Source: Candidatus Fervidifonticultor secundus | GTDB lineage: Bacteria > Sysuimicrobiota > Sysuimicrobiia > Sysuimicrobiales > Humicultoraceae | Length of the DNA stretch: 64,000 nt | NCBI GenBank assembly: GCA_031459385.1 | Contig: JAVKIP010000003.1 | Coordinates: 133,192-197,191, forward strand | Reading direction: 5' to 3' | Shown: piece after piece, positions 87 to 15,591 of the stretch | Layout: each line of letters begins with the position of its first letter | Position numbering within the stretch: position 1 is the stretch's first letter | Notes under the pieces: model-generated | The model's input: the letters and a program-made list of their open reading frames with translations, nothing else | What the model was told of the DNA's origin: nothing | Database searches by the model: none | Program-made: the position numbers and the translations under genes

Positions 87-2192
87 TCAAAACCGGGGGT
101 TATCGTACCAGCGGTCGATGATCTGATAGGCTGCTCGCAGGAACCGGGCATCCACGCCGCCCCCGGGGTCGAGGACGTACCCGACGCCCTGGTTGATGTG
201 GATGTACTGGCCCAGCAGCGCCCCGGTGAACTCGCCCGCCTGGTTGATGCTGATGTTGGCCCTCGGGGCGAAAACCACTGCCGACACCCGGTTCTCCTGA
301 TCCCACCAGATGGACGCGACGCCGGTCTCCTCGTACGACGGGTCGCTGGCGCAGCTCAGCACCTGGATGCGGTCCCCCGGCCAGACGAGCAGCGCGCCCG
401 GCTTGGTGTCGTCCACGCCGAACCACGACCGCTGCCCCAGACGGAACGTCCTCCCCACGTGGAAGTACACTTTTCCTCTCCCGGAGATGGCCAGGACCGC
501 GTCCCGCTCGAAGATGACGCTGGTGGCATGGATGTGCAGTTCGGCCGCGGGGTTGTCCGGCGTGCTGATCGTCATCCGCTGCCCGGCCCCCGGATGCACC
601 TCATCGTAGCGGAGTTCCTTCACCAGGCCCTCGGCCTCGCTGTGCACGATGCGCAGCGGCGCATCGTTGTTCGGGTCTGGGCTCGGCGTGCACGGGGGCG
701 GCACGAACGGCGCGCACAGGACCTCCCGCACGTGCTCCCGCACCACGCCGTCGACCTGCGCGGCACAGCCCTGCGAGCAGTTCACGTCGCGCCCTGCGAA
801 GGCGTTGCCGAAGATCGCGCGCGGCTCGGCGTAGATGACCGCCGTATCGGCGACCTTGTCGATATACCCTCGCTCGACGACCGAGGGGTTGGGGTTCAGA
901 TCGTCGAGCTGGTCGTTCCTCGGCGCGATCTCCGCGACGAACCGCCACGGCGCATTCGGCGTGCCGTCTTCCCTGCGCCGGTAGATGCGCCGCTTGAGCA
1001 CGGTGGCGCTCTCGGGAATGCCGGTGAGCTTCGTGTACTGGCCGTTCAGGTCCAGTGGACCGGCGGCGGGGCTCGCGGGGCTGCTCCCCACGGACTCGAT
1101 CTCGGCGGTCGTGGAACCCGGGTAGCGGTACACGTACGTGACCTTGTACGTGTAGCGGCCAGTCAGTCCCGGGGGCCGGACCGGCGGGTCGGCGGGAGCG
1201 GCCGCCGGCGCGCTCGCCGGCGCGGGCGGGCTGGGCGCCGTGGGGATCTGATGGATGAGCTCGCCGTCGACCCGCGTGTCGAGGTAGGTCTGCGTGCTAT
1301 TGTCCGGAATCTCGCCCACGAAGAACCACGGCCCCGTCGCCGCCTGCCCCGCGCGGGTTCTGTAGACTCTCCGCTTGACGATCGCCGCGGCGCCCAGAGG
1401 GATATTCGTCAGGGACCCGCTCTGGTTCGACAGCGCGACCGCGCCCGTCGCCGGGCTGCCGGCAGACTCGGCGCCGGCTGCGGTCACAAAGGTGACCTTC
1501 CAGGAGTAGGTGCCGGTCAGCCCGCGCGGCGCCTCGTCAGGGTCGATGGCGGTGGGCGTAAACCCGGCAGCGCCGGGGGGCGCCGCGAGGTCGTCGTCCC
1601 TCGCCTGGATGGTCCCCGGGTTGCGCCGTGGCCCCGCAACGGAGATGTCCCGATTGCTGGCCACATCGGCGGTGACAGACGTACCCTGGTCGAGCCGGAC
1701 GCCCCGCCGGCCGCAGAACCCGCCGAACGCATCGCCGCCCGGCGGCGAGCGCCGCACCCATACCTCGATCCGACGCCGAGCGCGCCCGACGCTGCTGGTG
1801 GCGATGACGTGCCGCACCTCGTTGTCCTGACAGCCTGTGGCTCCGGGCGCGGCGCCGTCGGTGCACCGCACGGCGACCTGGAACACCCCTGGACCGAATG
1901 CGATGGGTGTTCCCGACCCCGTCCAGCACTCGTCGTTGGAATGGTTCGGGGCGCACACCCAGGGCGGAGTGGTCTGCACGGCCCGGTCGTAGAGCTGCGA
2001 AATCGCGTAGGCGACGCCGGCCTCCGCCACGTTCAGCGTCTGGATCGCGAGACGGTTGGCCACCGCGCCGTGCAGGTCGCTCATGACCACCGAGAACACG
2101 CCGATGCCCATGAGCCCGACGAGGAGCGAGGTCACGAGCACGAGGGGAAGGGCGAAGCCTGGCTCCCTCCGCAGCCGGCGACACGTCACCAT
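87..2192 (-). CDS. Cassette 1 large PilX/GspK/ComZ-like minor pilin (tip protein) with two inserted FN3/Ig-like repeats
   Basis: Class III signal EPG|FALPLVLV lacking E5 (PilX hallmark), NVAEAGVAYAI PilX N-terminal motif, C-terminal IDRWYD strand; ATG with GAGG upstream. Confidence 0.8.
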   Translation of the reverse strand: MVTCRRLRREPGFALPLVLVTSLLVGLMGIGVFSVVMSDLHGAVANRLAIQTLNVAEAGVAYAISQLYDRAVQTTPPWVCAPNHSNDECWTGSGTPIAFGPGVFQVAVRCTDGAAPGATGCQDNEVRHVIATSSVGRARRRIEVWVRRSPPGGDAFGGFCGRRGVRLDQGTSVTADVASNRDISVAGPRRNPGTIQARDDDLAAPPGAAGFTPTAIDPDEAPRGLTGTYSWKVTFVTAAGAESAGSPATGAVALSNQSGSLTNIPLGAAAIVKRRVYRTRAGQAATGPWFFVGEIPDNSTQTYLDTRVDGELIHQIPTAPSPPAPASAPAAAPADPPVRPPGLTGRYTYKVTYVYRYPGSTTAEIESVGSSPASPAAGPLDLNGQYTKLTGIPESATVLKRRIYRRREDGTPNAPWRFVAEIAPRNDQLDDLNPNPSVVERGYIDKVADTAVIYAEPRAIFGNAFAGRDVNCSQGCAAQVDGVVREHVREVLCAPFVPPPCTPSPDPNNDAPLRIVHSEAEGLVKELRYDEVHPGAGQRMTISTPDNPAAELHIHATSVIFERDAVLAISGRGKVYFHVGRTFRLGQRSWFGVDDTKPGALLVWPGDRIQVLSCASDPSYEETGVASIWWDQENRVSAVVFAPRANISINQAGEFTGALLGQYIHINQGVGYVLDPGGGVDARFLRAAYQIIDRWYDNPRF

Positions 2193-2209
2193 CGTGCGCA
2201 CCTCGCCTT

Positions 2210-2848
2210 CTATGGCCCGCGTAGGCTGACGACCGTCTGGTACGTCTGCCGCTCGGGCGGCCGCCCTGCGGCCGATGCCGCCTCCACGGTCATCGTGATC
2301 CTCAGCGAGTGGACCTGCCGGCGATCGGCGGTCACGTTGCCGTCCCGATCGAGGTAGACGAACCCGCCCCCACTCTGCACGATGGGTGGGGTGAGGGCGA
2401 TGCGGCTGGGATCCGGGGCGGTCCGGGTGGTGACCTCGTCGGTGCACGGCTCCACTTCCTCGGGGCGGGTCTCCTGATAGAGCGTCTGGTTCTCCACGTA
2501 GTACACGTAGCGCAGTCGATCGTCGGGAGGTGCGCCGGGTGGGGACCGGTCCTCGAGGATGGCGTGGAAGGCCAGCCGCTGGCCGAATCCGTTGCCGGTG
2601 CCGATGACCAGGAAGCCCTCGGGGCAGGGCCGGTCGGCGTCGTAGTTCACCTGGCGCACCCGGTCGGCCAGCCACGCCATGGCCTGCCGTGCGCGCTCCT
2701 GGTCCGAGACCCGGGCGTGGACGATGAACCGCCCCCTGATGACGGCGCTGAGCAGCAGGTAGAGGCTGCTCACGACCAGCGCGGCGATGGCTAGGCTGGA
2801 GACCAGCTCGATCAGGGTCAGGCCCTCGGCGCGGCGCAGCAGCTTCAC
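2210..2848 (-). CDS. Cassette 1 PilW/GspJ-like minor pilin
   Basis: AEG|LTLIELVSSL prepilin motif; GTG overlaps the upstream stop (GTGA); C-terminal TVVSLRG typical of PilW/J. Confidence 0.8.
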   Translation of the reverse strand: MKLLRRAEGLTLIELVSSLAIAALVVSSLYLLLSAVIRGRFIVHARVSDQERARQAMAWLADRVRQVNYDADRPCPEGFLVIGTGNGFGQRLAFHAILEDRSPPGAPPDDRLRYVYYVENQTLYQETRPEEVEPCTDEVTTRTAPDPSRIALTPPIVQSGGGFVYLDRDGNVTADRRQVHSLRITMTVEAASAAGRPPERQTYQTVVSLRGP

Positions 2849-3369
2849 GGCGGGCACCGTCCGGTGAAGATCTCCGCAACGTACGTCGTGGTGGAGGCGT
2901 CCGGCGGGTACACATCCGGGTCTGGCCGCGGTCCGGGCCCCCAATCGGTCTTGTAGTAGTACACGGTGACGCGCTGCATCGCGGGCCCCGCCGGCTCGAC
3001 CTCCACGTACCCTGCGTCGGGAGCCGTCCCGGCCCGGCCCTCGACCACGGCCGGCAGCGCCGGTTCGCCCCGCAGCGTCGGATGCGGGACCTTCCAGCCC
3101 GGTTCGGGCAGCGGGGAGCACAGACGCCGCAGGAACTCGATCTCCCCCTGCATCCACAGGGTGGCTGCGCTGCGATCCTGGGACTGCTGGCGAGTGATGG
3201 TCAGGCTGCCGACGATCGCGCCCATCATGAGCGGTGTCGCCAGCCCCAGGATCAGCATCGTGACGAGCAACTCGACCAGCGTGAAGCCCCCGCGCCCAGA
3301 CCAGGACGCGAGGGCCCTCGCCGTGGCTGCGGGTGCCCTATCCACAGTCGGACGGTCGCCGCGTGTCAT
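2845..3369 (-). CDS. Cassette 1 PilV/GspI-like minor pilin
   Basis: RGG|FTLVELLVTML motif; AATLWMQGEIEFLR helix shared with the other PilV-like genes. Confidence 0.8.
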   Translation of the reverse strand: MTRGDRPTVDRAPAATARALASWSGRGGFTLVELLVTMLILGLATPLMMGAIVGSLTITRQQSQDRSAATLWMQGEIEFLRRLCSPLPEPGWKVPHPTLRGEPALPAVVEGRAGTAPDAGYVEVEPAGPAMQRVTVYYYKTDWGPGPRPDPDVYPPDASTTTYVAEIFTGRCPP

Positions 3370-3892
3370 CGGTGATCGCTCCGGTCTGCGCCGCCACGCA
3401 GATGTGGTAGGCCTTGCCTGTCAGGCTGCTGCGCACCCTGAGGGTCCCGCCGGCCTGCGGAATGCCCGTGGGGTCCCAGGCGAGCGCGGCCGGCAGGGAC
3501 GACCATTCGACATCGGCGGGGAAGCAGTAGCGCTTGATCACGGCCGCCGCCTGCGCAATCGTGTACGACGGTCGGTCGACGCATGCCGGATCGCTGGCCG
3601 CGAACGTCACATCGACGTCGGCGCGGCGCGTCAGCGCTTCCTGCTGGGCGACGCGCAGATCGGACGCCAGGGTGCGCGCCACGGCCAGCGCGCGCTGGTT
3701 GCTCTGGTAGTTGCGGTACGAGGGCAGGCTGAGCCCGAGGACGACGCCCGCCAGCGCGAGGACGAGCACGGTCTCCAGATACGAGACACCACGCTGACCC
3801 CTGTAGGGAACCGCCGCCCCGCCCATCGGCGCCGACGCCTGCGCTCGGCCCTCGCGCGCCGAGCGCCGCTCAGAATCACGAAGAGAGCGCAT
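3338..3892 (-). CDS. Cassette 1 FimT/GspH-like minor pilin
   Basis: QRG|VSYLETVLVL; LASDLRVAQQEA FimT/H motif; C-terminal VAAQTGAI. Confidence 0.8.
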   Translation of the reverse strand: MRSLRDSERRSAREGRAQASAPMGGAAVPYRGQRGVSYLETVLVLALAGVVLGLSLPSYRNYQSNQRALAVARTLASDLRVAQQEALTRRADVDVTFAASDPACVDRPSYTIAQAAAVIKRYCFPADVEWSSLPAALAWDPTGIPQAGGTLRVRSSLTGKAYHICVAAQTGAITDDTRRPSDCG

Positions 3893-3900
3893 CCGCGCGG

Positions 3901-3990
3901 CCCTCTTCGGTAGCCCGGCCGACCCGCCGACACAGCCGGGTCCCGCAGCTTTGCGCCCCCGGATCGCTCCGGGGTCAGCCCGTTCGGAGG
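3901..3990 (-). ncRNA. c-di-GMP-I (GEMM)-like riboswitch upstream of cassette 1
   Basis: CCUCCG-AACGGGC-UGA-CCCCGGA-GCGA-UCCGGGG-GCGCAAAG, a P3 hairpin, then ACCGAAGAGGG; G20/A47/C92 equivalents present; 3' strand of P1 (GAGGG) lies 8 nt before the ATG. Confidence 0.85.
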
Positions 3991-4100
3991 TGTCGGCTCG
4001 AACCTTCCCTGCAAGCTCCCTGGACCTTCACCGGAGGTGCCCCACCGCCGGCGAAGGGTTGTGAGTGTTCTCCAGGCCGGCGAGAACTCCTCCTGACGAT

Positions 4101-4150
4101 CCCCTGGGCGATTTGCCCCGGGGTGAAGGTCCCCGGGGTGATGTTCCCCT
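4101..4150. repeat. Three 15-bp tandem imperfect repeats CCCC(T/G)GGG(C/T)GA-N4 plus a partial fourth
   Basis: cccctgggcgatttg / ccccggggtgaaggt / ccccggggtgatgtt / cccct. Confidence 0.6.
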
Positions 4151-4157
4151 GCGGGGC

Positions 4158-4754
4158 TCAGTCCGGAACCTTCTCGGGCCCCCTGTTCCGGTAGGCGTTG
4201 ATGAACGCCACGATCCGGCCCTCGTCGTAGGCGTCGAGCGTCAACAGCCGCTCCCAGGCCGCCACGGCAATGGCGCGGTCGTTCTGCGGCCGCGGCGTCA
4301 GGATGACCTTGCTGCGATACCGCCCCACCAGCTCTTCCAGCTTCTCCACCAGCGCGGTGTCCTTCGGATCCCGGTAGGAGATCCAGATGCCGCCGTGTTC
4401 CAGGTTGTGAACGACGATCTCGTCGGGGATCGGCTCGCGATGGACGCCCCAGGGCGCCACCTGGTTCCCGGTGTGCCAGCCAGAGGTGGGCGGGTTGGAG
4501 TTGTATGGCGGGTGCGGTTGGCCCAGCGCGATGTGCTGTCGGCCCTGACCCGGGATGCGGTCGCCCGGGCCGGGGCGCAGCGCCGACCAGACGATGAGCG
4601 CCACCAGCACGACCGCACCCGCCGCCACGCTGCCGTAGACCGTGACCTGCCGCCTGCGCCGGCGCGTCTGCTCCTGCCGCTGGGCCTGGCGCCGGGCCTC
4701 GCGGGCGGCTTCCCGACGCTGGTGCTTGGCTTCTCGCGCGGTGGACCCGGCCAT
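4158..4754 (-). CDS. DUF3105-family membrane-anchored protein
   Basis: N-terminal basic stretch plus TM helix; YNSNPPTSGWH and VHNLEHGGIWISY motifs. Confidence 0.85.
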   Translation of the reverse strand: MAGSTAREAKHQRREAAREARRQAQRQEQTRRRRRQVTVYGSVAAGAVVLVALIVWSALRPGPGDRIPGQGRQHIALGQPHPPYNSNPPTSGWHTGNQVAPWGVHREPIPDEIVVHNLEHGGIWISYRDPKDTALVEKLEELVGRYRSKVILTPRPQNDRAIAVAAWERLLTLDAYDEGRIVAFINAYRNRGPEKVPD

Positions 4755-4991
4755 GAGGACGCTCCCTGAGCCTTCCCCCAGAGCCTGCAGGGGAGTTCTT
4801 CGATCGTGGTGTAATCTTCCCGCCGGCGCGCCTGGCGCACGGCGGTGGACCTGGCACGCTCCCTAGTCTAGCAGTTGCGTCAAGGGCCGGCACTGTCGCC
4901 TGGCGGCCTGGATCGCTTCGGCCACAGGCACTGAGGGACCGACTGGGATGCACCGCCGGTGGGCACTGTTGCTATGGAGCAGGAGTCGCGA

Positions 4992-5085
4992 CGTCCTCCG
5001 ACAATGGCCACCCCGGAGCGATCCGGGGGCGCAAAGTCCCAGGGCCCGCGCGATCCGCGGGCTGGCTGCACTGCCGAAGAGGGCG
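4992..5085 (+). ncRNA. c-di-GMP-I (GEMM)-like riboswitch upstream of cassette 2
   Basis: CGUCCUCCG-ACAAUGGC-CA-CCCCGGA-GCGA-UCCGGGG-GCGCAAAG, P3 GCCCGCG/CGCGGGC, then GCCGAAGAGGGCG; P1 CGUCCUC/GAGGGCG. Confidence 0.85.
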
Positions 5086-5133
5086 ACGTGTGAGTCATGC
5101 CAGGGCACACGCGCTGGCTCGGAGGCGAGGACC

Positions 5134-5676
5134 ATCACGTCCAGGGCGCGAGACGGATTCACCCTGCTGGAAACCCTGATCGTTGTGGCGGTGCTGGGCC
5201 TGCTCCTGGGCTTCTCTGTGCCCCTCTACCGCGGCTCCCTGGCCGACCGCGCCGTCTGGAACGCCGCCTTTCAGGTCCAGAACGACCTCCGGCTGGCGCA
5301 GCAGGTCGCCCTCGCCAGGGCAGGGCGCGGGCCGAGGGTGGAGCTGTGCTTCCTGAGCGCGAACCATGACGCCGGCTACGAGATCTACACGGTGGACTAC
5401 ACCGACCGGTTTGCGCGGACGGGCGCGGTGATCGGCCAGACGGTGAAGGTCGTCAGGGCCGGCGAGGCCTTCCGCACCGGCCTCGACGTGGACGTGGAGG
5501 CAGGGGCAACGCAGGCCTGCCTGGCCGGTGGCGGCAGACCGGCACTGGTCTACCTGAGCACGGGCAGCCCGACGTTTGCCACCGAGCGGCGCATCACCCT
5601 TACCTATCAGGGCCGCTCGCGGTGCGTCACGATCACCCCCACGACGGGCCGCGCCACGGCGGGGCGGTGTCCGTGA
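5134..5676 (+). CDS. Cassette 2 FimT/GspH-like minor pilin (start uncertain: ATC at 5134, or a frameshift from GTG 5090)
   Basis: RDG|FTLLETLIVVAV; VQNDLRLAQQVA; C-terminal ITPTTGRA; no in-frame ATG/GTG/TTG between the riboswitch and the pilin motif. Confidence 0.7.
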   Translation: MTSRARDGFTLLETLIVVAVLGLLLGFSVPLYRGSLADRAVWNAAFQVQNDLRLAQQVALARAGRGPRVELCFLSANHDAGYEIYTVDYTDRFARTGAVIGQTVKVVRAGEAFRTGLDVDVEAGATQACLAGGGRPALVYLSTGSPTFATERRITLTYQGRSRCVTITPTTGRATAGRCP

Positions 5677-6227
5677 GGGCGGTCCGTGGCAGCCGGACCG
5701 GCCCTCCCCGACTGCGCGCCGCCGGCTTTACCACCTTCGAGGTCCTGCTGGCCGCCGTGGTGGTGGCGCTCGTGGTGGCGTTCACGATCCGGGTGGTTGT
5801 CGCGACACTGGGGCTCGTGGGAAGTTCCGAGCGGGACCCGCAGCACGGCGCGCGCGCCCGGTCGCAGGCGACCGAGTGGATCCAGGCAGCGATCGAATAC
5901 AGCCGGGCCGTCGGGTTCGACGCGCTGCGCAGGGCGCCGACGTGCGCTGCGCTGACCGCGCTGTCGCCATGTCACTTCTGGATTCCGCCGGCGGTCGACA
6001 GCGCGGATAGGCCGTTCGACCTGGGGCCGGCGCTGCCTTCTGGCTTCGACTGCGGCCATGTGCAACTGGCGCAGTGGAGCGCCAGCCCGCCGCCCGGCGG
6101 CGATCTCGACAACCTGCTGTCGCTGACCGTGGAGGTCTACCGGTCCCGCACGTCCTGCGACGCCGGCGGGACCGGGCAGGCGTTCATGACCGCTCAGACC
6201 GCCATCGCCAGGCGGCAGGGACCGTAG
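5673..6227 (+). CDS. Cassette 2 PilV/GspI-like minor pilin
   Basis: AAG|FTTFEVLLAA; QATEWIQAAIEY helix; GTGA overlap with the upstream stop. Confidence 0.8.
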   Translation: MRAVRGSRTGPPRLRAAGFTTFEVLLAAVVVALVVAFTIRVVVATLGLVGSSERDPQHGARARSQATEWIQAAIEYSRAVGFDALRRAPTCAALTALSPCHFWIPPAVDSADRPFDLGPALPSGFDCGHVQLAQWSASPPPGGDLDNLLSLTVEVYRSRTSCDAGGTGQAFMTAQTAIARRQGP

Positions 6228-6241
6228 ACGAGGAACCGGGC

Positions 6242-6832
6242 GTGGTCAGGGCGACCGGCCGGGTGCGCGAGCGGGGCATGACCCTGATGGATGTGGTGGT
6301 GGGCCTGGCGCTCATGACCGTCGCGGCCCTGGGGATCTTCGCCGGCTTCAAGGGCGCGCTCACCGGCTGGACCGTGGCCCAGCAGGTCACCGCGGAATCC
6401 CACAACGCGCGCTTCGTGCTCGAGTACGTGGCGCGGCTGCTCCGGATGGCCGGGAACGAGTACGCCGGCGGTCCGCCGCTGGCCGTGACGAACCCAGACG
6501 AGGTCGTCTTCCTGGGCAACGTGGACGACGACCCGCAGGTGGAGTGCTACAGCATCTACCGCGACGGGCAGGGCGTCGTCCGCATCTTCGCGATGGAGCT
6601 GGGGGGCGCGGACCCGCCGCCGGCGGCGTGCACCGGCGCCCGGGCCGCGGGAGCGGGCCAGCCGCTGACGACCCAGGTCGAGGCGCGGAACATCACCGTG
6701 GAAGACCTGCGGCTCTCGTACAGCCCGACGGTGCTGCCGCGACGGGTGACGCTCGAGATCCGCGTGCGCGGGGTCGGCTCACCCGGACCGTTGACGATGT
6801 CCACCCAGGTGTTCTTGCGCGCAGGACAGTAG
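6242..6832 (+). CDS. Cassette 2 PilW/GspJ-like minor pilin
   Basis: ERG|MTLMDVVVG (D at position 5); NARFVLEYVARLLRMAG; C-terminal TQVFLR. Confidence 0.8.
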   Translation: MVRATGRVRERGMTLMDVVVGLALMTVAALGIFAGFKGALTGWTVAQQVTAESHNARFVLEYVARLLRMAGNEYAGGPPLAVTNPDEVVFLGNVDDDPQVECYSIYRDGQGVVRIFAMELGGADPPPAACTGARAAGAGQPLTTQVEARNITVEDLRLSYSPTVLPRRVTLEIRVRGVGSPGPLTMSTQVFLRAGQ

Positions 6833-6843
6833 GGGGCGAGCCC

Positions 6844-8640
6844 ATGGGACGCGAGGCGCACACCCACGGCGCGCACGGGCACGGCCCGCACGCACGCCGC
6901 GGGCGGGGCGAGCGGGGCACCGCGATGCTGATGGCCCTGGTGGTGGTCCTGATCCTGGCCCTGCTGACCATCGCCCTGGCCAACGTCGCCGTCACCGAGT
7001 ACTCCACGGCCGCCGCGCTGGATCGCAGCCTAAAGGCCCTGATCGGCGCCGAAGGGGCGGGCGAGGCCCTCATCGCGTTCCTGCGCACCCAGGCAGACTG
7101 GACAAACCTGGCAACCACCGGTGGCTGGACGAACGGCAGCCTGCCCGCCGCCCTCCGGCAGGGCACGCTGCCGGGCAGCGACGTCAGCTATGAGATTCGC
7201 GTGCGCCACCTGTCCGGCCCGGGTTACGATCCGGCGGTCAACATCCTGGTGCGGGTCGTGGGCGAGGCGCGCGGACAGAGCCGGGCCGTCGAGTTCCTGC
7301 TGCACAGGGTGGGCCCGGCAGACTTCATCTTCTATTCGGTAGACAACGTGGACATCTGCTCGATCGCGGGCGGCGGCAGCCTGCAGTTCCACGGCTCGGC
7401 CTACTTCCAGGCCGATCTGTGTCTCAAGGGGGGCGCCGAGTCGGGCTTCTACAACGACCGCCCGGTGTCCACGGCGCACCGCGACGCCAACGGGAACCAG
7501 CTCTTCCTCAACCATCTGTACGTGCAGGGCAACCTGGACGGCACCGGCAACCCCTCCATCGGGACCGCCTCGCAGCACTACTTCTTCCTGCACGTGGCCG
7601 GGACGCTTACCAACAGCAACAAGTTCTTCTATGACAACTTCGACCGGAACGTGAAAGACCCGTTCTATCCCGCCGTGGTGCAGATCGTCGCGCAGGCCGC
7701 CAGCAACCCGGCCAATGCGGGGCGACAGCAGGGCACACAGATGGAGCTGGCCATCTGCGAGTACAACCCGGCCGGCAACACGTGGGCGAAGGTCTACACC
7801 CCGAACCTGAGCCTGCAGGCCGGCAAGGTCTTCTACCTGCCGCGCCCTACGGTCGAGACCGGCTACTGGCTCGCGGACACGAGCCCCTGCCCGAACTCCG
7901 GGACACTCCCCGACGCGGTCCGCGCCTCGTCGCTCTACGCCCTCTACTGGGACGGACGGTCGAGCCCGGCCAGCGGGACCAGCAACCTGGTGATCCCGGT
8001 GTCCGACCGGCCGATCTACGTGCCGGGGAAAGTGCTGCACGGGCAGAACGTCCGGTTCGAGGGCAAAGGGCAGATCGTGGCAGCCAACCAGCCCGGAGCC
8101 GGCGTCAGGCTCGCCGACGGCACGCGGGTGGCGGTAGCCGCGCAGAGCACGTGTGCCTGGAACCTGGACGACCCCACCGCTGCCAACGCCACCGGCAACG
8201 ACTGCGGGGACAGCAACAATGCGGGCTACTGGGTCAGAGCGAAGGTCTCGCCATGCCGCCAGCCCCCGGGGCCGGGGCCGTTCGCCAACGACAACCCCGC
8301 CTCGACGTTCGTCCGGCGCTATGGCGCCAACGCCGCCGGCGATGTGGTCGTGTTCGTCGTCAACGGGAGTGCCGGGTCGCGGCTGAACGCCAACGCCTGC
8401 GACCAGGAGATGAACCTGATGGCCGTCGTCGGCGACGCGGCCTCGAGCGCAGGCTTCCGGATGGCCTACAAGCTGCAGTGGTACGGCGTGTTGATGACCA
8501 GGCAGATGCGCCTGGGACAGGTGCCCGACTTCTGGCAGATGCCGGATACGTTCGGCGAGCTCCCCGGCTGGATGAAGAACATCCTGCTCGGGCAGAACTC
8601 CGGGGTGGTCCGCGTGGAGCGCTGGCGGGAGCTCTTCTAA
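6844..8640 (+). CDS. Cassette 2 large PilX/GspK/ComZ-like minor pilin
   Basis: ERG|TAMLMALVVV; ALIGAEGAG; C-terminal VRVERWRELF. Confidence 0.8.
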   Translation: MGREAHTHGAHGHGPHARRGRGERGTAMLMALVVVLILALLTIALANVAVTEYSTAAALDRSLKALIGAEGAGEALIAFLRTQADWTNLATTGGWTNGSLPAALRQGTLPGSDVSYEIRVRHLSGPGYDPAVNILVRVVGEARGQSRAVEFLLHRVGPADFIFYSVDNVDICSIAGGGSLQFHGSAYFQADLCLKGGAESGFYNDRPVSTAHRDANGNQLFLNHLYVQGNLDGTGNPSIGTASQHYFFLHVAGTLTNSNKFFYDNFDRNVKDPFYPAVVQIVAQAASNPANAGRQQGTQMELAICEYNPAGNTWAKVYTPNLSLQAGKVFYLPRPTVETGYWLADTSPCPNSGTLPDAVRASSLYALYWDGRSSPASGTSNLVIPVSDRPIYVPGKVLHGQNVRFEGKGQIVAANQPGAGVRLADGTRVAVAAQSTCAWNLDDPTAANATGNDCGDSNNAGYWVRAKVSPCRQPPGPGPFANDNPASTFVRRYGANAAGDVVVFVVNGSAGSRLNANACDQEMNLMAVVGDAASSAGFRMAYKLQWYGVLMTRQMRLGQVPDFWQMPDTFGELPGWMKNILLGQNSGVVRVERWRELF

Positions 8641-8785
8641 CCTTATCACTCGCAGGTAGCAGACGCCCGGGCGCCCGGCCGTGCCCTCCCGTCGTCGCCC
8701 CTCCCGCCCGGCTGGGCGGGTCTAGGACCGCGGTCTCCGGGGCATGACCCTCCCGGGGGGACTCCGGTCAGAGGAGTGGGATCGC

Positions 8786-9283
8786 GTGCGGTGCCTTTGG
8801 CAGGCGGCCTGGCGTGGCCACACAGCTCCGACGGCCGCCGGCGTCACAGTCCTGGAGCTCGGGGTCGCGCTGGGCCTGGGGGCGTTGCTCCTGGCCCTAG
8901 CGATGCCACTGTACTTCGGCTTCGTGCGCGAGCGCCGGGTGGCCCGCGTGGCCGAGGACCTGGCCGGCCTGCTGCGCTTCGCACAGCAGCGGGCGGTGGC
9001 CCAGTCGGTCGACAGCTGCGGCGTGCAGGTCGTCACCCTGAGCTCCCGCGCCGAGGTCCGGCGGATCCCGCGGGAGGCGGACGGCGACTGCGCCGACCCG
9101 GTGACGATCCGGGTCGGCGAGCCGTACCCGCAGGGTGTCGCCGTGGCCGAGGTCACCGTCGAGTTCTCCAGTGCGGGATCCCTGGCCACGGGCAGCGCGA
9201 CCTCGATCGGCATCGCCTCGGGGGGTCGCACGCGCACGGTGTCGGTGCAGGCCGCCACGGGAAGGGTGGAGATCACGCCATGA
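8786..9283 (+). CDS. Cassette 3 FimT/GspH-like minor pilin
   Basis: AAG|VTVLELGVAL; LAGLLRFAQQRA; VQAATGRV; GAGGAG 9 nt before the GTG (alternative ATG at 8744). Confidence 0.75.
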   Translation: MRCLWQAAWRGHTAPTAAGVTVLELGVALGLGALLLALAMPLYFGFVRERRVARVAEDLAGLLRFAQQRAVAQSVDSCGVQVVTLSSRAEVRRIPREADGDCADPVTIRVGEPYPQGVAVAEVTVEFSSAGSLATGSATSIGIASGGRTRTVSVQAATGRVEITP

Positions 9284-9810
9284 CGCCGCGCAAGCCGGAT
9301 GGCGGGTTCACGCTGATCGAGGTGGTCATCGCCATGCTGCTGCTTGGCATCGTGGCGCTGGGGAGCAGCGGCGTGGTCCGGTCGCTGGGCCTGCTGGGGC
9401 GCTCGCAGATCTCCAGCGACCGCCACGAGCGGCCCGCGCGGCTGCGCACGCTGGCCATGGAGTACATCCAGGCCGAACTGGAGTACCTGCAGAACCGCTC
9501 GTACTACGCCCTGCGCGACGCCTCGGCGTGCAACCCGCCCGGGGCGCCCACGCCGATCGCCGCGGCGCGCCGCGTCCCGAGCAGCTACCTGGACGCCAGC
9601 GAGCCTCGCCTGCCGGCCTCGTTCGCAGCGGCGGACATCATCATCACGACGGATCCGACCATCACCGCGCCGGCGTCCCCGCCCCTGGACTGCCGGCCCA
9701 GGGTCATGAGCGTCACCGTCTACCTGGCGCCCGGCGACCTGCCGGCTGTGCCCGGCGGCGCAGGCGGCACCCCCTTCATCCGCGGCGCCACGGCCCGGTC
9801 GTGGCGATAG
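9280..9810 (+). CDS. Cassette 3 PilV/GspI-like minor pilin
   Basis: DGG|FTLIEVVIAM; LAMEYIQAELEYL; ATGA overlap. Confidence 0.85.
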   Translation: MTPRKPDGGFTLIEVVIAMLLLGIVALGSSGVVRSLGLLGRSQISSDRHERPARLRTLAMEYIQAELEYLQNRSYYALRDASACNPPGAPTPIAAARRVPSSYLDASEPRLPASFAAADIIITTDPTITAPASPPLDCRPRVMSVTVYLAPGDLPAVPGGAGGTPFIRGATARSWR

Positions 9811-9839
9811 CCACCGGACGCCGCCGGGAGGACGGAACG

Positions 9840-10475
9840 ATGCCACGGCACGCGACGCGGACGGCTGACCGGCGGGGCGAGCGGGCATTCACCGTGCTGG
9901 AAGTGCTGGTGGCGCTCAGCCTCTTCGGGGTGGTCCTGCTCACGGGCTTTGCGGCGTTCAACGCCAGCTACCGCGGTCTGGTGGCGGGCAAGGAGCTGGC
10001 CGACGAGCACCAGAACGCGCGGCTGGTCCTGGAGTGGATCACCCGCCGGATTCGCCTTGCCGGCATCGGCGCGCCCCCCGGCACCACGGCCTTCTTCAGC
10101 GAAGCCGGTACCAGCGCCCTGGCGTTCGTCGCCGATACCGACGCCGACGGGGTACTCGAGTGGCGCCGGTACTGCCTGGATGCCGCCGCAGGCGCGGTCC
10201 GCGAGCAGGTGCTCGAACCCGCACCCACCCCGCTGCCGTCCCCCGGCGACGCCTGCGCCGGCGCGACCATCACCTCCCAGGGGCTGCATGCGCTGCGCGT
10301 CTCCCTGCTGCAGTTCTCGTACTTCAACGGGCAGGAGGCGGCAACCAGCGCCCTGTCCCAGATCCGCCGGGTCCGGATCGTGCTGGGCCTGGACTCGAAC
10401 CGCTCGGGCGCCTACGACGCCGCCCAGGACGTCACCTTCACGATGGACGCCGTGCTGCGGAACCCGCTCCAGTAG
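9840..10475 (+). CDS. Cassette 3 PilW/GspJ-like minor pilin
   Basis: ERA|FTVLEVLVAL; QNARLVLEWITRRIRLAG; C-terminal AVLRN. Confidence 0.85.
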   Translation: MPRHATRTADRRGERAFTVLEVLVALSLFGVVLLTGFAAFNASYRGLVAGKELADEHQNARLVLEWITRRIRLAGIGAPPGTTAFFSEAGTSALAFVADTDADGVLEWRRYCLDAAAGAVREQVLEPAPTPLPSPGDACAGATITSQGLHALRVSLLQFSYFNGQEAATSALSQIRRVRIVLGLDSNRSGAYDAAQDVTFTMDAVLRNPLQ

Positions 10476-10510
10476 CGGGGACGCCGTCTGCCGCCGGAGG
10501 GCATGTGACC

Positions 10511-12382
10511 ATGGACAGCGCGCGACCCACAACGTCGGTCAGGCGATCGCCCGGCGAGGCCGGGCTGGCGCTGGCCCTCGTGCTCTTGACCATCAACGTC
10601 ATCCTGATCGTCACCGCGACCCTGGTGGCCATCGCGCTGAACGAGTACCAGGCCGCGGCTAGCGGCGAGCGGTCGCGCCAGGCATTTCAGCTGGCCGAGG
10701 CCGGGCTGGAGAAGGCGATCTACGAGCTAAAGCGCGACCTGGACTGGACCGACTCCGGCGCATCCGCAGCCGCCACCAGGAACCTCAACGACCCGCGGGA
10801 GTGGGCACCGCTGTGGGACGGGAGCGCGAACCTCGTCGACACGCCGTTCCCGGCGGGGGCGACGATCGGCGAGATCACCGTCGAGCTGTGCCGCGACGAC
10901 AACTTCGGCGACGGCAACGGCTGCCCGGGCGTGCCCGCGCCGACCGTGGCCGGGTGCACCCCGAATGCCTGCATCTGGGTGCGGGCCACCGGGCGCATCC
11001 CCGGGCTGGCCGCGCGGCAGATCGAGTTCCTCCTGAGCCAGATGGCGCCGGGGTACGACCTGATCAACTACTCGGCGAGCCCCATCAACATCGGCGCCGG
11101 CGGCGGCGGCAACGGCAGTTTCATCCTCCACGGCTCGCTCTACATCGCCTCGTGCCTCGACCCCGACGGGGGCGGTCCCCAGCCGTGCGTGGGTCTCGTC
11201 ATGCAGGGTGACGGCGCCATCCTCAACGACGTGCCGTATCCCACGCCGGGCGACCCGGACACCACCCCACCCTACAACAACAAGGTCTATGTGGTCGGTC
11301 AGATCCAGGGCCAGGGCAACTCGTGGCAGATCGGCCTGGACAGCCAGCCCATGCAGGGCGTCTATGCCACCCTGGGCTGGTCCAGCGGCTACGAGAACCA
11401 GATCGACGCGCTCGACAAGGGGACCGTGGTGCCATTTGTACCCTTCCCCGACCCCTCGAAGCTCTGTGAGCCGGGGGCCCCCGGCGATCCACCGCGGTGC
11501 CTAATGAACCGGCTCAACCTGCCACCGGCCGACGGCGGCATCACGCCCATCAACGCCGACCTGGCGTACGTCTGCACGGCCGCCACCTGCACCACTGCGG
11601 CCTCGTGGACGCCGGTGTACATCCGGGGGCCCCTGGCCGACCCCCTCACGCCGCTGCGGCTCTCGGCGAACAACCCGACGCGCACCCGGGTCGTGATTCC
11701 CGACCGCAACCCCGACGGCTCGCCGGCGGTGAACTGCACGACGACGCCGTCGACGTGCAATGTCGCCGCCGGGACCGGCAGCGTGAACGGGTCGGGGAAC
11801 TTCTCCCTGGTCTACAACGGCTACGCGGGCGCCGGCCAGGTGAACCTGTGGACGCAGTCCGGGGCCGATGCCTTCATCCACACCACCAAGCACGTTCGGA
11901 TCGACGGCGACGTGCGCTACGCCGGCCGCACGACGTTCCTGATCGAGAACGCCGACGACGTGGGCGCGGCGATGCCGGCACTGGAGATCCGCGGGTCGGT
12001 CACGCCGCTGTGCCGGGCCAGCCAGACCACCTGCGCCCAGACGTTCGGTCAGGCCAACGGGGACACCTACGCGTTCGCGGTCGGCCCCAAGTGCACGGGC
12101 GCGCCGCCCAGCGGTTCGCTGGTCTGCACGCCGACCGGGGGCGGCGTCTACGTCCGGGGGTCGGGGATCGAGCTGAACCTGGTGGTGCTGGCCCACGGGA
12201 CGCTCAAGAACGACAACCCGCAGACCTGGTACGGCATGTTCATCGCGGGCCTGCTGGACTGGGACAACAACCCGTCCATCTATCCCGTGGCCAACCTGAA
12301 GGCGAACCTCCCGCCCGGCATCGCTCCGCTGGCCAAGCCGGGGTTCGGGCTGCAGATCACGCGATGGCGCGAGGTCTTTTAG
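10511..12382 (+). CDS. Cassette 3 large Cys-rich PilX/GspK/ComZ-like minor pilin
   Basis: EAG|LALALVLL; QAFQLAEAGLEKAIYEL PilX motif; C-terminal LQITRWREVF. Confidence 0.85.
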   Translation: MDSARPTTSVRRSPGEAGLALALVLLTINVILIVTATLVAIALNEYQAAASGERSRQAFQLAEAGLEKAIYELKRDLDWTDSGASAAATRNLNDPREWAPLWDGSANLVDTPFPAGATIGEITVELCRDDNFGDGNGCPGVPAPTVAGCTPNACIWVRATGRIPGLAARQIEFLLSQMAPGYDLINYSASPINIGAGGGGNGSFILHGSLYIASCLDPDGGGPQPCVGLVMQGDGAILNDVPYPTPGDPDTTPPYNNKVYVVGQIQGQGNSWQIGLDSQPMQGVYATLGWSSGYENQIDALDKGTVVPFVPFPDPSKLCEPGAPGDPPRCLMNRLNLPPADGGITPINADLAYVCTAATCTTAASWTPVYIRGPLADPLTPLRLSANNPTRTRVVIPDRNPDGSPAVNCTTTPSTCNVAAGTGSVNGSGNFSLVYNGYAGAGQVNLWTQSGADAFIHTTKHVRIDGDVRYAGRTTFLIENADDVGAAMPALEIRGSVTPLCRASQTTCAQTFGQANGDTYAFAVGPKCTGAPPSGSLVCTPTGGGVYVRGSGIELNLVVLAHGTLKNDNPQTWYGMFIAGLLDWDNNPSIYPVANLKANLPPGIAPLAKPGFGLQITRWREVF

Positions 12383-12422
12383 GGGTCTAGGGCGGCCCGG
12401 AAACGGGCAAAGAGTTCCAGGG

Positions 12423-12514
12423 CTCCTCCGACAAAGGCTACCCCGGAGCGATCCGGCGGGCGCAAAGCTCCAGAACCCGGGTTCTCCCAGGTTGGCTGAG
12501 CTACCGAAGAGGGG
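12423..12514 (+). ncRNA. c-di-GMP-I (GEMM)-like riboswitch upstream of cassette 4
   Basis: CUCCUCCG-ACAAAGGC-UA-CCCCGGA-GCGA-UCCGGCGG-GCGCAAAG, P3 AGCUCCAGAACC/GGUUGGCUGAGCU, then ACCGAAGAGGGG immediately before GTG 12521. Confidence 0.85.
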
Positions 12515-12520
12515 AGAGTT

Positions 12521-13045
12521 GTGGGAACTGCCTTCTGCAGAGCCACGCGCACGGGCTCGAGCCCGTCCGCTCCGCACCGCACGCGCCGAATCCCACACGG
12601 TGCTCGTCAGGCGCCCTCTGGGCGCTGGCAGGCCGGGTACACGGTCCTGGAGCTGCTCATCGTCTCGGCGATCGGCCTGCTGGTGCTGTCGTTCGGGGTC
12701 GGCAGCATCAGCCGGGCCATGGCCCGCGAGGAGCTGGATGGCTGGGCCCGGGCCATCGCCGTCGAACTCACGGCCGCCCAGCAGGCGGCCATGACGCGCC
12801 GGACCAGCGTCACGGTGTCGTTCCAGAACAACGCCTTCATCGTGGTGGCCAGCGGCGGCGGCACGCTGCGCGCGCAGGACCTGCCGTCCCACATCAGCTT
12901 CGGCGCCACGCTGCAGACGGTGACGTTCGACCGGCGGGGGGTGCCAGGCGGCGCGTCCTCCGTATCGCTGACGAGCACGCGCGCCGGGAAGACCTACACC
13001 ATCACGATCCAGCCCAACACGGGACGGGTGACCGCAGATGGCTGA
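12521..13045 (+). CDS. Cassette 4 FimT/GspH-like minor pilin
   Basis: QAG|YTVLELLIVS; ELTAAQQAAM; IQPNTGRV. Confidence 0.8.
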   Translation: MGTAFCRATRTGSSPSAPHRTRRIPHGARQAPSGRWQAGYTVLELLIVSAIGLLVLSFGVGSISRAMAREELDGWARAIAVELTAAQQAAMTRRTSVTVSFQNNAFIVVASGGGTLRAQDLPSHISFGATLQTVTFDRRGVPGGASSVSLTSTRAGKTYTITIQPNTGRVTADG

Positions 13046-13475
13046 CCGCCCGCGCGCCCGCCGCGCCAGCGGCGGGTTCACCCTGATCGAGGTCGTCGTC
13101 GCCATGGCCGTGCTCTCCCTGGTGGCCACCACCGCGCTGGGCGGGCTGCTGTTCACCATGACCCAGACCCGGCGCGGCTTCGACCGGGCCCAGGCCGCGG
13201 CATGGGTCCAGGCCGAGCTGGACTTCCTGCGCACCATGGGGTACGGGCTGGCGCCGGGGACGCGCACTGTGCCCACTGACGGCTATCTGGCCAACAGCGA
13301 CCTGCAGGAACCGCGGATTCCCGACGGGTTCGACCGGGCCGAGATCGTCGTCGAGGACCTCACCGGCAGCCTGGGCATTCCCCTGAAGTCCATGACGGTG
13401 CGCCTGTACCAGACGCCGACCTCCCCGCCCTACACGATCCTCGTCACGTATGTGGCGAACTTCGACTACCCGTGA
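13038..13475 (+). CDS. Cassette 4 PilV/GspI-like minor pilin
   Basis: SGG|FTLIEVVVAM; AAAWVQAELDFLR. Confidence 0.85.
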   Translation: MADRPRARRASGGFTLIEVVVAMAVLSLVATTALGGLLFTMTQTRRGFDRAQAAAWVQAELDFLRTMGYGLAPGTRTVPTDGYLANSDLQEPRIPDGFDRAEIVVEDLTGSLGIPLKSMTVRLYQTPTSPPYTILVTYVANFDYP

Positions 13476-14185
13476 GCGGACCAGCGATGCGCCGGCCTGG
13501 GGCAGCACGGCACGGACAGGCGGGGATCTCCCTCGTCGAGGTCATGGTGGCCATGGTCATCATGACGGTCGTCATCGGGACGATCGCGACGCTGGTGGGC
13601 GCGTCGGTCCGCAGCAAGATGATCGTGGCCAGCCGGTCCTCCGACACGGAGACGGCACGCCAGACGCTGGAGATGATGTCCGAGCGGCTGCGCAACGCGG
13701 GGCTGAACATCGACCCTGCGGCCCAGCCCGACCGCTGCGACGACATGGTCGTGGCCAAGGACCCGGCCCTGCGGCCGACGGCGACCCAGCTCTACGTGGC
13801 CGGCGAGATCTTCAACTCGAACACGACCGCGGGCGACCAGGTGATCGTGCTGGGCTACCGGCTCACCGGCGGCCGGATCGTCGAGGACCGCAGCGCGTGC
13901 GGCGTATGGGCTCCGACGACCAGCGATGTCTCGAACCCCGGGATCACGGTGACGAGCCTGCTCTTCCGGTACTTCGGCTCAAGCGGCGGCGAGATCACCG
14001 TACCCACAACCGACGAGGAGGCGATCCGGAGCATCCGCGTGGTGCAGATCAGCCTCACGGTCCGGGCCGAGGAGGGACGGTCGGGCGCCCAGATCCAGCG
14101 CTTCAGCCGGCAGGTGATGCTGCGCAACCCCCGGCCGGACCGCAGTGGCTGGCTGCCGCCGGCCGGATGGGAGACGAATCCATGA
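13472..14185 (+). CDS. Cassette 4 PilW/GspJ-like minor pilin
   Basis: QAG|ISLVEVMVAM; ARQTLEMMSERLRNAG; QVMLRN. Confidence 0.85.
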   Translation: MSGPAMRRPGAARHGQAGISLVEVMVAMVIMTVVIGTIATLVGASVRSKMIVASRSSDTETARQTLEMMSERLRNAGLNIDPAAQPDRCDDMVVAKDPALRPTATQLYVAGEIFNSNTTAGDQVIVLGYRLTGGRIVEDRSACGVWAPTTSDVSNPGITVTSLLFRYFGSSGGEITVPTTDEEAIRSIRVVQISLTVRAEEGRSGAQIQRFSRQVMLRNPRPDRSGWLPPAGWETNP

Positions 14186-15591
14186 AAAGAGGCACGATGC
14201 GGCCCGCCGGCGCCGGGCGCCTGCGCCGCACGCCGGCGGGCGGCCAGGCTGGCGCGGCGCTGCTCTCGGTGGTGCTCTTCCTGCTGCTGATCCTGATGGT
14301 CACGGTGGGTGTCATGGCGGTGGTCCGCAGCGACCTGGCGGCCGGCATCCGCCAGCAGCAGGCCGTGCAGGTCTTCAACGTGGCGGAGGCGGGCGTGCAC
14401 TACGCCATCGCGCGCCTGCAGACCTCTGGGGCGAACCGGTACGACGGGGCCACGGTCCCCATCACCGACGGCAGCACCACCATCGGGACCGCCACCATCC
14501 AGGTCCGCTGCCTGGACGGCACCCTCCCGAGCGCCAGCGCCTGCAACGGTGCCGAGCCGGCCTACCGGCGGATCGCCTCCACCGGAACGCTCACGGTGGC
14601 AGGACCCCGTCGGGTGGTGACGGCGGTGGTCGAGGGCACGACCTCAGTGACACGGACCTACGCGGTGTGCGCCTACGACGCCCTGACCCTCGACCAGCAG
14701 GTGACGGTCTACGGGTCGGTGGGCACCAACGGCATTATGACGCTCAGCGGGCCCAACAACCTCAACCGTGCGGCGATCTGCGACTCCACCCCGGGCGGGC
14801 TGGGCGGCCGGTGCGGCACGCCCAATCCCGCACCCGCCAGCTCGTTCACGGCCGGCGCCTCCGCCGTGGGGACCATCACGTGCAACGGGGGCGGCTGTGC
14901 CAACCAGGTGGAAGGGCCGACGACACCCAACCAGCCGGCCGGGTCGGTATGCCCGACGGTCACGCTCCCGGGCTGGGGGCCCCCGGGCACCACGCCCCTG
15001 TCGGTGCCCCTCGGCAGCACGGTGTTCGCCAACCCCGCCACCAACTACGGCTCCGTGACGCTGGCGGATACGCCCGGCAACCCCAACCCCTGCCCGTCGG
15101 ACCCCGCGCAGCGCGCCACGCTGGTGCTGGACGCGGGCAGCGACCCCACCGCGACGGTCACGTTCCAGATGGCCACGCTGTCGGTCGGCAAGTGCGCCCG
15201 CGTCGAGATCCGCGGGCAGGGGAAGGTCGAACTGCGGTTGCTCGCGCCGACCACCACGGCGCTGCGCACCGTCCAGCGCTCGGTCCTGGGGACCACCTCG
15301 CAGACCGTCGGCAGCGAGGTGGCCGTGGAGGGCCACCGGTTCACGGTCAAGGTGGTGTCCACCCACTCGACCGCCGCCGTCGACTTCAACCAGTCGGGCT
15401 TGATCGCCGGCACGTTCATCGTGCCCAACGGCGGGTTCCACCTGGACCAGGCACAGATCACCAACGGCGCGATCCTGGCGAGGGCCGTCGACTTCGACCA
15501 GGGCACCACCTTCACGTGGGACCCGCGGTCGATCATCGGCGACCAGGTCTACGGCGACTTTCGCCGGCTGCGAGCCTGGAAGGACCAGTAG
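14182..15591 (+). CDS. Cassette 4 large PilX/GspK/ComZ-like minor pilin
   Basis: QAG|AALLSVVL; QVFNVAEAGVHYAIARL; C-terminal RLRAWKDQ; ATGA overlap. Confidence 0.85.
   Translation: MKRGTMRPAGAGRLRRTPAGGQAGAALLSVVLFLLLILMVTVGVMAVVRSDLAAGIRQQQAVQVFNVAEAGVHYAIARLQTSGANRYDGATVPITDGSTTIGTATIQVRCLDGTLPSASACNGAEPAYRRIASTGTLTVAGPRRVVTAVVEGTTSVTRTYAVCAYDALTLDQQVTVYGSVGTNGIMTLSGPNNLNRAAICDSTPGGLGGRCGTPNPAPASSFTAGASAVGTITCNGGGCANQVEGPTTPNQPAGSVCPTVTLPGWGPPGTTPLSVPLGSTVFANPATNYGSVTLADTPGNPNPCPSDPAQRATLVLDAGSDPTATVTFQMATLSVGKCARVEIRGQGKVELRLLAPTTTALRTVQRSVLGTTSQTVGSEVAVEGHRFTVKVVSTHSTAAVDFNQSGLIAGTFIVPNGGFHLDQAQITNGAILARAVDFDQGTTFTWDPRSIIGDQVYGDFRRLRAWKDQ

Follow-up and report, generated by a model that had tools for sequence, protein, structure and literature searches.

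The 64,000-nucleotide window analysed here (positions 133,192 to 197,191 of contig JAVKIP010000003.1, assembly GCA_031459385.1) comes from Candidatus Fervidifonticultor secundus, a member of the uncultured hot-spring lineage Candidatus Sysuimicrobiota; sequencing runs containing the window DNA are labelled hot springs metagenome, and no RNA run is listed for positions 3300-13100. Within 15.5 kb of this window (positions 87-15591) lie four minor-pilin modules that are paralogous to one another: module A is encoded on the minus strand, modules B, B' and C on the plus strand (Table 1). The usual layout of a module is a GspH/FimT-like pilin (PF12019), two N-methyl pilins (PF07963) and a large PilX-like protein with a weak DUF7305 match. 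Module B deviates from it, with two open reading frames (ORFs) with pilin-like N-termini and a large protein, all without a Pfam match. PF12019 (GspH) was matched by four proteins and PF07963 (N_methyl) by five, with PilX_N and DUF7305 staying below the Pfam cut-offs. These family domains, combined with prepilin N-termini (G|F/Y/V-T/S-x-x-E followed by a hydrophobic helix), mark the proteins as minor pilins of the type IV pilus/type II secretion system kind. Three riboswitch aptamers, referred to below as copies A, B and C, each head one run of these pilin-like genes. Module B' starts at 8744 with neither an aptamer nor a remnant of one before it (Rfam at E<=1 is empty in 8500-8900). The orthologue of the copy B aptamer in G002, a genome of the same genus, directly precedes the counterpart of module B', and the first in-frame start is at least 51 nt downstream of it.

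We scanned the whole window on both strands against 4227 Rfam families. Exactly three matches were above gathering, all of them to the class I riboswitch for cyclic di-guanosine monophosphate (c-di-GMP), namely c-di-GMP-I (RF01051, GEMM-I; gathering score 35 bits). Their E-values range from 4e-6 to 4.4e-5, each covers model columns 1-87 full-length, and in clan competition RF01051 beats RF03167 for all three. By inspection, CCUCCG, CCCCGGA-GCGA-UCCGG, GCGCAAAG and CCGAAGAGGG are common to copies A, B and C. The initial annotation had proposed three GEMM aptamers sharing these strings, and this is confirmed by the three matches at 43.0-47.3 bits. Copies A, B and C are c-di-GMP-I riboswitch aptamers, well above chance, with c-di-GMP as the predicted ligand.

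To examine the fold, we aligned 12 pilin-linked copies and imposed the canonical GEMM-I structure on the alignment. Standard pairs occupied 92.0% of the cells, compared with 83.5 +/- 1.0 in shuffles (0 of 500 reached 92.0%) and with 27-51% when the pairing partners were slid. Compensatory change on both sides was found in 15 of 27 pairs, and 8 of these belong to P3; because these 8 P3 pairs change on both sides, the earlier statement that the P3 stems differ in sequence but still pair holds. P1 consists of the nucleotides directly 5' of CGA paired with those directly 3' of CCGAA. Of 42 clade copies, 33 form three or more contiguous pairs in this register and two others form 5 pairs in register -1; the covarying P1 types in the clade include UUC:GAA, CAC:GUG, UAC:GUG, CGC:GCG, CCC:GGG, CCU:AGG and GUU:AAC. 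P1 of copies A, B and C joins CCUC to the GAGG located 3' of CCGAA and extends over 4, 7 and 6 contiguous pairs, respectively. The assignment of GAGG(G) as the 3' strand of P1 in all three copies, also made in the initial annotation, is thereby supported by the sequence and by the covariation of P1 in the clade. GAGG at this place is the generic P1 strand of the clade (tails beginning GAG occur in 23 of the 42 copies), and it is found too in copies that have terminators 50-100 nt downstream.

Folding of transcripts that end right after P1 gave the GEMM shape, with P1 in the minimum free energy (MFE) structure, for all three copies. With 50 nt of downstream sequence added, a fold without P1 won by 7.2 kcal/mol in copy A, 3.8 in copy B and 4.2 in copy C. 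This speaks for RNAs able to switch, but we give the values little weight since MFE calculations are noisy in GC-rich RNA. Vc2, the reference GEMM-I aptamer, binds c-di-GMP very tightly. Tight ligand binding could plausibly cover fold differences of 3.8-7.2 kcal/mol. We also considered an extended P1, comparing the 31 nt upstream of the aptamers with the 42 nt downstream, against shuffles. Copy C alone stood out (~2.6 sd), and we dropped the extended P1 as a general feature because the copy C signal is not conserved in its orthologues.

In copy C, GTG 12521 lies 6 nt after GAGGGG and is the sole ATG, GTG or TTG in the pilin C frame before the prepilin site G|YTVLE. Both of the same-genus C-type orthologues keep an in-frame start 2-6 nt after GAGGG(G): GAGGGG-N6-GTG in G002 and GAGGGCG-TTG in G001. 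Judged by sequence, the P1 3' strand of copy C would be the Shine-Dalgarno (SD) motif of a real start codon, free when P1 is open, and both orthologues fit the same description. Neither the 40 nt nor the 220 nt downstream of copy C and its orthologues yielded a complement to the aptamer tail, and a long-range anti-SD search on copies B and C and the orthologues gave nothing significant up to +220 nt. It is fairly probable, from this arrangement, that copy C acts as a translational OFF switch through a hidden ribosome-binding site (RBS), in which c-di-GMP would hide the SD of GTG 12521 in P1. The C-type aptamers are nearly identical among orthologues, and the leader sequence has diverged almost completely; in this genus the C-type leaders to the cleavage-site glycine are 39, 40 and 23 aa long. 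In-frame ATC codons in these leaders were considered as starts and rejected as chance occurrences because no SD precedes them. As a separate observation, the C-type leaders (12521-12637 and the L044 and L041 orthologues) are barely conserved and have a lower G+C content at third codon positions (GC3) than the mature parts do; it looks as though what used to be 5' untranslated region had been absorbed into the frame.

Copy A is built differently downstream of P1. The P1 3' strand GAGG occupies 3905-3902, and ATG 3892 lies 8 nt after GAGGG, at the loop/closing pair of a 12-bp hairpin. The 5' arm of this hairpin is the aptamer tail itself, CGAAGAGGGC, which includes part of the conserved CCGAA plus the P1 strand, so that the hairpin and the aptamer cannot coexist. 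Pairing of the tail with the next 40 nt reaches -16.1 kcal/mol (z -4.2), which none of 500 shuffles matched. The hairpin is followed by a UGAUUCU tail (3878-3872), a weak U-tract. Pilin A could start at ATG 3892, which gives a 35-aa leader, or at the in-frame ATG 3826, which gives a 13-aa leader; two A-type homologues without a nearby riboswitch, read by eye, have leaders of 13 and 17 aa. We have moderate confidence in a model in which c-di-GMP prevents the hairpin and would thus turn copy A ON via read-through or unmasking; translation might then begin at ATG 3826. Copy A resembles the classical ON arrangement, in which the P1 3' strand doubles as the 5' arm of a terminator. The overlap of the P1 3' strand with the 5' arm of a tail hairpin is present in copy A, while copies B and C do not show this design.

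Relatives display this arrangement with proper terminators. L083, L085, L086, L049, L109 and L110 clearly have a terminator with a U-tract and with a 5' arm that runs into the P1 3' strand, and the tail-complement hairpins of G007, G041, G022 and, more weakly, G011 are listed with their shuffle scores in Table 1. The same tail hairpin was obtained in 3 of 3 metagenome copies with the subfamily core (-24.5 to -26.3 kcal/mol; folds only, without a shuffle test), two of which precede a pilin with a short leader. L069 of the unpublished genome G010 is a further hairpin example, on which we base no conclusion. Copy A differs from the design of its relatives in its weak U-tract and in having the SD and ATG embedded in the hairpin. 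The A-type pilin homologues in G011, G012 and G018 have no aptamer within 1.5 kb. Single-base deletions at 3974 and 3977 were seen in short contigs with 3 mismatches; their likeliest source is cross-mapping of other GEMM-I paralogues rather than variation in copy A.

At copy B, the start-like codon next to P1 does not lead into the pilin. GTG 5090 lies 6 nt after GAGGG (5079-5083) and opens a frame of 29 codons that ends at TGA 5177-5179, out of the pilin B frame; GTG 5088 stands immediately before a TGA, and ATG 5097 is in the third frame. From the aptamer to the G|FTLLE site, the pilin B frame holds no ATG, GTG or TTG. Contigs of four runs of one study (maybe the source of this DNA) span 4940-5159 without an indel, so the problem is not an assembly slip. 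Two in-frame codons deserve consideration. ACG 5086 stands exactly where G001 carries its in-frame TTG after GAGGGCG, and ATC 5134, 8 nt after GGAGG 5121-5125, would give a typical 8-aa leader. Pilin B may start at one of these non-canonical codons, or it may be decaying. No competitor to the copy B tail was found within 40 nt (shuffle test) or +220 nt. P1 of copy B can be extended to 11 pairs, with one A.A mismatch, between 4987-4998 and 5079-5090, and a hairpin at 5082-5115, without a U-tract, overlaps the 3' strand of this extended P1.

Copy B might be decaying or constitutive, with a long P1 that stays closed with or without ligand and with the pilin B start lost through change of an ATG-type codon to ACG 5086. 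We find this possible and lean against it. The 7 contiguous P1 pairs extendable to 11, the ACG at the place of the G001 start and the missing canonical in-frame start, which the four runs do not explain by an assembly slip, all speak for it. But copy B is the highest-scoring aptamer of the three, the pilin B frame is intact and strongly coding (GC3 0.90), GGAGG-N8-ATC would yield a leader of typical length, and P1 is absent from the MFE structure of copy B once downstream sequence is added.

The overall best explanation, which we hold with middling confidence, is that three c-di-GMP-I aptamers sit on minor-pilin modules and that closure of P1 has a copy-specific effect. Binding of c-di-GMP would close P1 (CCUC:GAGG) and thereby bring separate minor-pilin modules, which prime and tip the pilus, under c-di-GMP control. 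The three expression platforms differ in kind, not merely in degree. Several points weigh against this explanation. The window has a G+C content of 72%, and MFE predictions are noisy in such RNA. There are merely 4 U in the first 8 nt after the copy A hairpin, and consensus scans call no terminator after copy A, nor after copies B and C. ATG 3826 has no good SD, whereas ATG 3892 has one; if ATG 3892 were the true start, its SD would be paired with and without ligand, which would make little sense in the logic of a switch. On account of these two points, and because the hairpins of relatives are terminators, we regard copy A as probably ON, with either ATG 3892 or ATG 3826 as its start codon. 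Seven of the 12 pilin-linked copies tested have no tail competitor, so the ON-type hairpin is not universal, and a flip from ON to OFF between sister genera is not parsimonious. Finally, a 39-aa leader is unusual for pilin C (homologues elsewhere, read by eye, have 8-27 aa), and this leader does not carry the coding GC3 signal (0.74, versus 0.94 in the mature part).

Two uniform schemes have to be set against the copy-specific explanation, and both appear improbable to us. The initial annotation had all three copies as translational OFF switches, with the SD hidden in P1 upon ligand binding and with differences between the copies tuning their thresholds. It is true that the P1 3' strand is GAGG(G) in all three, that the genome uses strong SD motifs, and that a start-like codon (ATG 3892, GTG 5090, GTG 12521) does follow at 6-8 nt in each. 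Copy C and its two same-genus orthologues fit the scheme. The idea of graded thresholds is overtaken by platforms that differ in kind. The scheme does not fit the other two copies: GTG 5090 opens only the out-of-frame run described above, and the GAGGG and ATG 3892 of copy A would be locked in the 12-bp competing hairpin when P1 is open, leaving the gene off in both states, while the homologous hairpins in relatives are terminators with separate RBSs downstream. The opposite scheme takes all three copies as ON, in keeping with an ancestral terminator design, with the P1-adjacent starts of copies A and C unused or with a ribosome that opens P1. It is favoured by the tail-competitor terminators in four shuffle-tested copies outside the genus (G007, G041 and G022, with G011 weaker), by the same platform, as judged from folds, in all three metagenome copies, by the short leaders of homologues together with the lack of a coding GC3 signal in the window leaders, and by the C. 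difficile c-di-GMP riboswitch that, in the available portion of PMC6366702, turns on type IV pilus genes. But copies B and C and the same-genus orthologues have no tail competitor within +220 nt, and in three genomes no second canonical start lies in the frame of pilin C.

Under the copy-specific explanation, riboswitches of one aptamer subfamily but of opposite polarity could stand side by side (A ON, C OFF), and the locus would then be a tip-module selector in which a rise of c-di-GMP swaps the minor-pilin/PilX set that primes and caps the pilus. We put this forward tentatively and think it unlikely. In such a selector, the genus would have acquired its OFF platform when it lost the ancestral terminator and the start codon shifted up to the P1 strand. 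If the polarities truly differ, c-di-GMP would decide the composition of the pilus tip and not merely whether pili form. The selector offers a testable idea on the choice among several minor-pilin sets in bacteria, and the locus provides a natural series of platform change on a constant aptamer, i.e., terminator, hairpin with weak U-tract, and SD in P1.

We turn now to the ligand-binding part of the aptamers. In the Rfam consensus alignment, the bases at the places of Vc2 G20, A47 and C92 are G, A and C in copies A, B and C (the mapping from Vc2 to alignment columns is ours). They are read as the G before the paired GC, the A after GC in GCAAAG, and the first C of CCGAA. The places of the interhelical C-G pair are the C in GGC/GAC and the middle G of the P3 GGC. 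The roles of these bases in Vc2 are described in the available portion of PMC4744006. The initial annotation was therefore right in calling these ligand positions canonical. It had also described the P2 loop as non-consensus, and here the clade contradicts it. Among 43 clade copies examined, 41 could be parsed, and 37 of these have GYRA tetraloops (GCGA 18, GUGA 9, GCAA 7, GUAA 3), the others being GAAA (2) and GAGA (2). The GCGA loop of copies A, B and C, a GNRA loop, is accordingly the local norm. The tetraloop-receptor columns are deleted in the Rfam alignment of our copies, and Weinberg et al. had already noted in 2007 that GYRA loops come without the receptor (PMC1950547, available portion). 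The replacement of the AAA after G21-C22 reported earlier is real: the linker is UGA in copy A, CA in copy B and UA in copy C, compared with AAA in 32 of the 41 parsed copies. In that set, UGA, CA, UA and UAA linkers are restricted to the pilin-linked copies of this genus and to L008 of the same genome. UA and AA forms recur in sister-genus and metagenome copies that have the same P2 sequence. We read the altered linker as a conserved signature of an aptamer subfamily, and one way to view the variant is as an additional P2 base pair, by which a 3+3 internal loop becomes 2+2.

The AAA of the internal loop is a consensus feature for which we know of no ligand contact. The G, not A, at the G20 place of copies A, B and C is an argument against the cyclic GMP-AMP (cGAMP) type. 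It is very improbable that the altered linker (Y-A for AAA, with GC for GAC opposite) shifts ligand specificity off c-di-GMP. In favour of such a shift, the pilin-linked subfamily keeps the variant in two genera and in metagenome copies, and these copies score lowest against RF01051 (42-47 bits versus 58-80 for other clade copies); against it, all three ligand-contact positions and the interhelical C are canonical (Rfam alignment; PMC4744006, available portion) and the change is readable as an added P2 pair.

Table 1. Aptamers, expression platforms and minor-pilin genes of the window, with the shuffle-tested tail hairpins of copies in other genomes
Feature	Position	Strand	Details
Copy A, c-di-GMP-I aptamer	3990-3906	-	RF01051, 43.0 bits; P1 5' strand CCUC 3990-3987; linker UGA after GGC; tetraloop GCGA
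Copy A hairpin, 12 bp	3909-3879	-	5' arm is the aptamer tail (3909-3900), 3' arm 3890-3879 (RNAfold)
Pilin A, GspH/FimT-like	3892-3338	-	PF12019, E 5.9e-6; prepilin site G|VSYLE
Module A N-methyl pilins	3369-2845, 2848-2210	-	ORFs, Pfam
Module A PilX-like/DUF7305 protein	2192-87	-	ORF, Pfam
Copy B, c-di-GMP-I aptamer	4996-5078	+	RF01051, 47.3 bits; P1 is 4995-4998 with 5079-5082
Copy B platform	5079-5136	+	GAGGG 5079-5083; hairpin 5082-5115; GGAGG 5121-5125; ATC 5134
Pilin B, GspH-like	5134-5676	+	Site G|FTLLE; start uncertain
Module B ORFs with pilin-like N-termini	5622-6227, 6074-6832	+	Without Pfam match
Module B large protein	6544-8640	+	Without Pfam match
Module B' second GspH-like pilin	8744-9283	+	Pfam
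Module B' PilX-like protein	10034-12382	+	Pfam
Copy C, c-di-GMP-I aptamer	12426-12508	+	RF01051, 43.1 bits; P1 is CUCCUC 12423-12428 with GAGGGG 12509-12514
Copy C RBS	12509-12523	+	GAGGGGAG, then GTG 12521
Module C GspH-like pilin	12521-13045	+	Site G|YTVLE
Module C N-methyl pilins	13038-13475, 13472-14185	+	Pfam
Module C PilX-like/DUF7305 protein	14167-15591	+	Pfam
G007 tail-complement hairpin			z -6.1; then U-rich tail, SD, start, short leader
G041 tail-complement hairpin			z -5.8; then U-rich tail, downstream start (read by eye)
G022 tail-complement hairpin			z -4.1; then U-rich tail, SD, start, 10-aa leader
G011 tail-complement hairpin, weaker			z -1.9, 0.04 of shuffles as good; then run of seven U

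A DUF3105 gene (4158-4754, minus strand, E 1.1e-27) is situated between the leaders of copies A and B; it shares the strand of module A, lies upstream of that module and is divergently oriented to copy B. Eight RF01051 matches were counted in the assembly (3.3 Mb, 59 contigs), which also has 7 GGDEF matches, PilB/PilT-type ATPases and one prepilin peptidase. On another contig (C10, 13518-25500), two GEMM-I copies (L008 and L003) flank a type IV pilus core cluster with PilB-, PilT- and PilC-like genes, and one of the two precedes a sigma-factor-like gene and a Roadblock/LC7-like gene (identities read from translations). The order aptamer, sigma factor, Roadblock and GspH recurs in genera g2, g3 and g12 (L075-L079). 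The GEMM-I copies about 1.65 kb upstream of GspH-like genes in these three genera were considered as orthologues of those in the window and rejected as not orthologous; they head the sigma-factor-like and Roadblock-like genes (also read from translations). On contig C5 (77660-81612), L001, another GEMM-I copy, stands before a gene whose translation resembles a histidine kinase and two GGDEF genes that follow it, which would make a c-di-GMP feedback loop possible. One further RF01051 copy of the genome precedes a Fur-like gene. L001, L002 and L003 of the same genome score best against the variant family c-di-GMP-I-GGC (RF03167; 60.7-66.2 bits, cut-off 59), not against RF01051; the literature searched gives no definition of this variant family. 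RF01051 is present in 41 of 41 examined genomes of the same order (1-14 matches each, genome sizes 1.5-4.6 Mb), a tally that includes two genomes flagged as unpublished (G010 and G019), and GEMM-I is unusually abundant in this clade. A single-protein search with pilin C returned one locus, at 57% identity, in a metagenome-assembled genome assigned to Candidatus Fervidifonticultor (Candidatus Sysuimicrobiota).

Neither the riboswitch class nor its likely ligand nor its link to pili is new, and the papers compared here are cited from their available portions. Vc2 (leader of Vibrio cholerae tfoY) belongs to the same Rfam family and shares with our copies the three-helix fold, the G20/A47/C92-type contacts and the interhelical C (PMC4744006). 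Our copies differ from it in the GCGA (GYRA) loop without the 11-nt receptor, a variant noted in 2007 (PMC1950547), in an internal loop of 2+2 or 3+2 instead of AAA/GAC, and in a P1 of CCUC:GAGG. For Bc2 of Bacillus thuringiensis, a class I aptamer, transcription of a downstream reporter rises with c-di-GMP (PMC11218506). The same ON polarity is our reading of copy A and of the copies in G007, G041, G022, G011 and L108-L110, although the target gene and organism are different and copy A has a weak U-tract and a start codon inside its hairpin. Cdi-2-4 of Clostridioides difficile, upstream of pilA1, likewise places type IV pilus genes under a c-di-GMP riboswitch and is ON by read-through (PMC6366702), but it is a single class II copy acting on the major pilin and on the pilB operon downstream, not one copy per minor-pilin module.

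The GEMM-associated pili and flagella genes of Weinberg et al. (2007) include pilM, pilO, pilQ, pulF and cpaA, as well as pili assembly genes of Geobacter (PMC1950547). Those are genes of the assembly machine, and the available portion of that paper does not mention GspH/FimT-type minor-pilin modules. In Myxococcus xanthus, several paralogous minor-pilin/PilY1 sets prime and tip the pilus and are differentially expressed (PMC7541494, PMC9109919, 10.1101/2021.07.28.454143); there regulation is, according to PMC9109919, by a phosphorelay, and the available portions report no riboswitch. A full-text literature search for 'c-di-GMP riboswitch' and 'minor pilin' returned no title or abstract with both terms, subscription journals lying outside its coverage. 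Pilus-linked c-di-GMP riboswitches are known only for assembly genes or a major pilin. Beside these known systems, what the present locus adds is modest but new: one aptamer per minor-pilin module, on three paralogous modules, in a candidate phylum, a conserved linker variant, and three platforms on near-identical aptamers.

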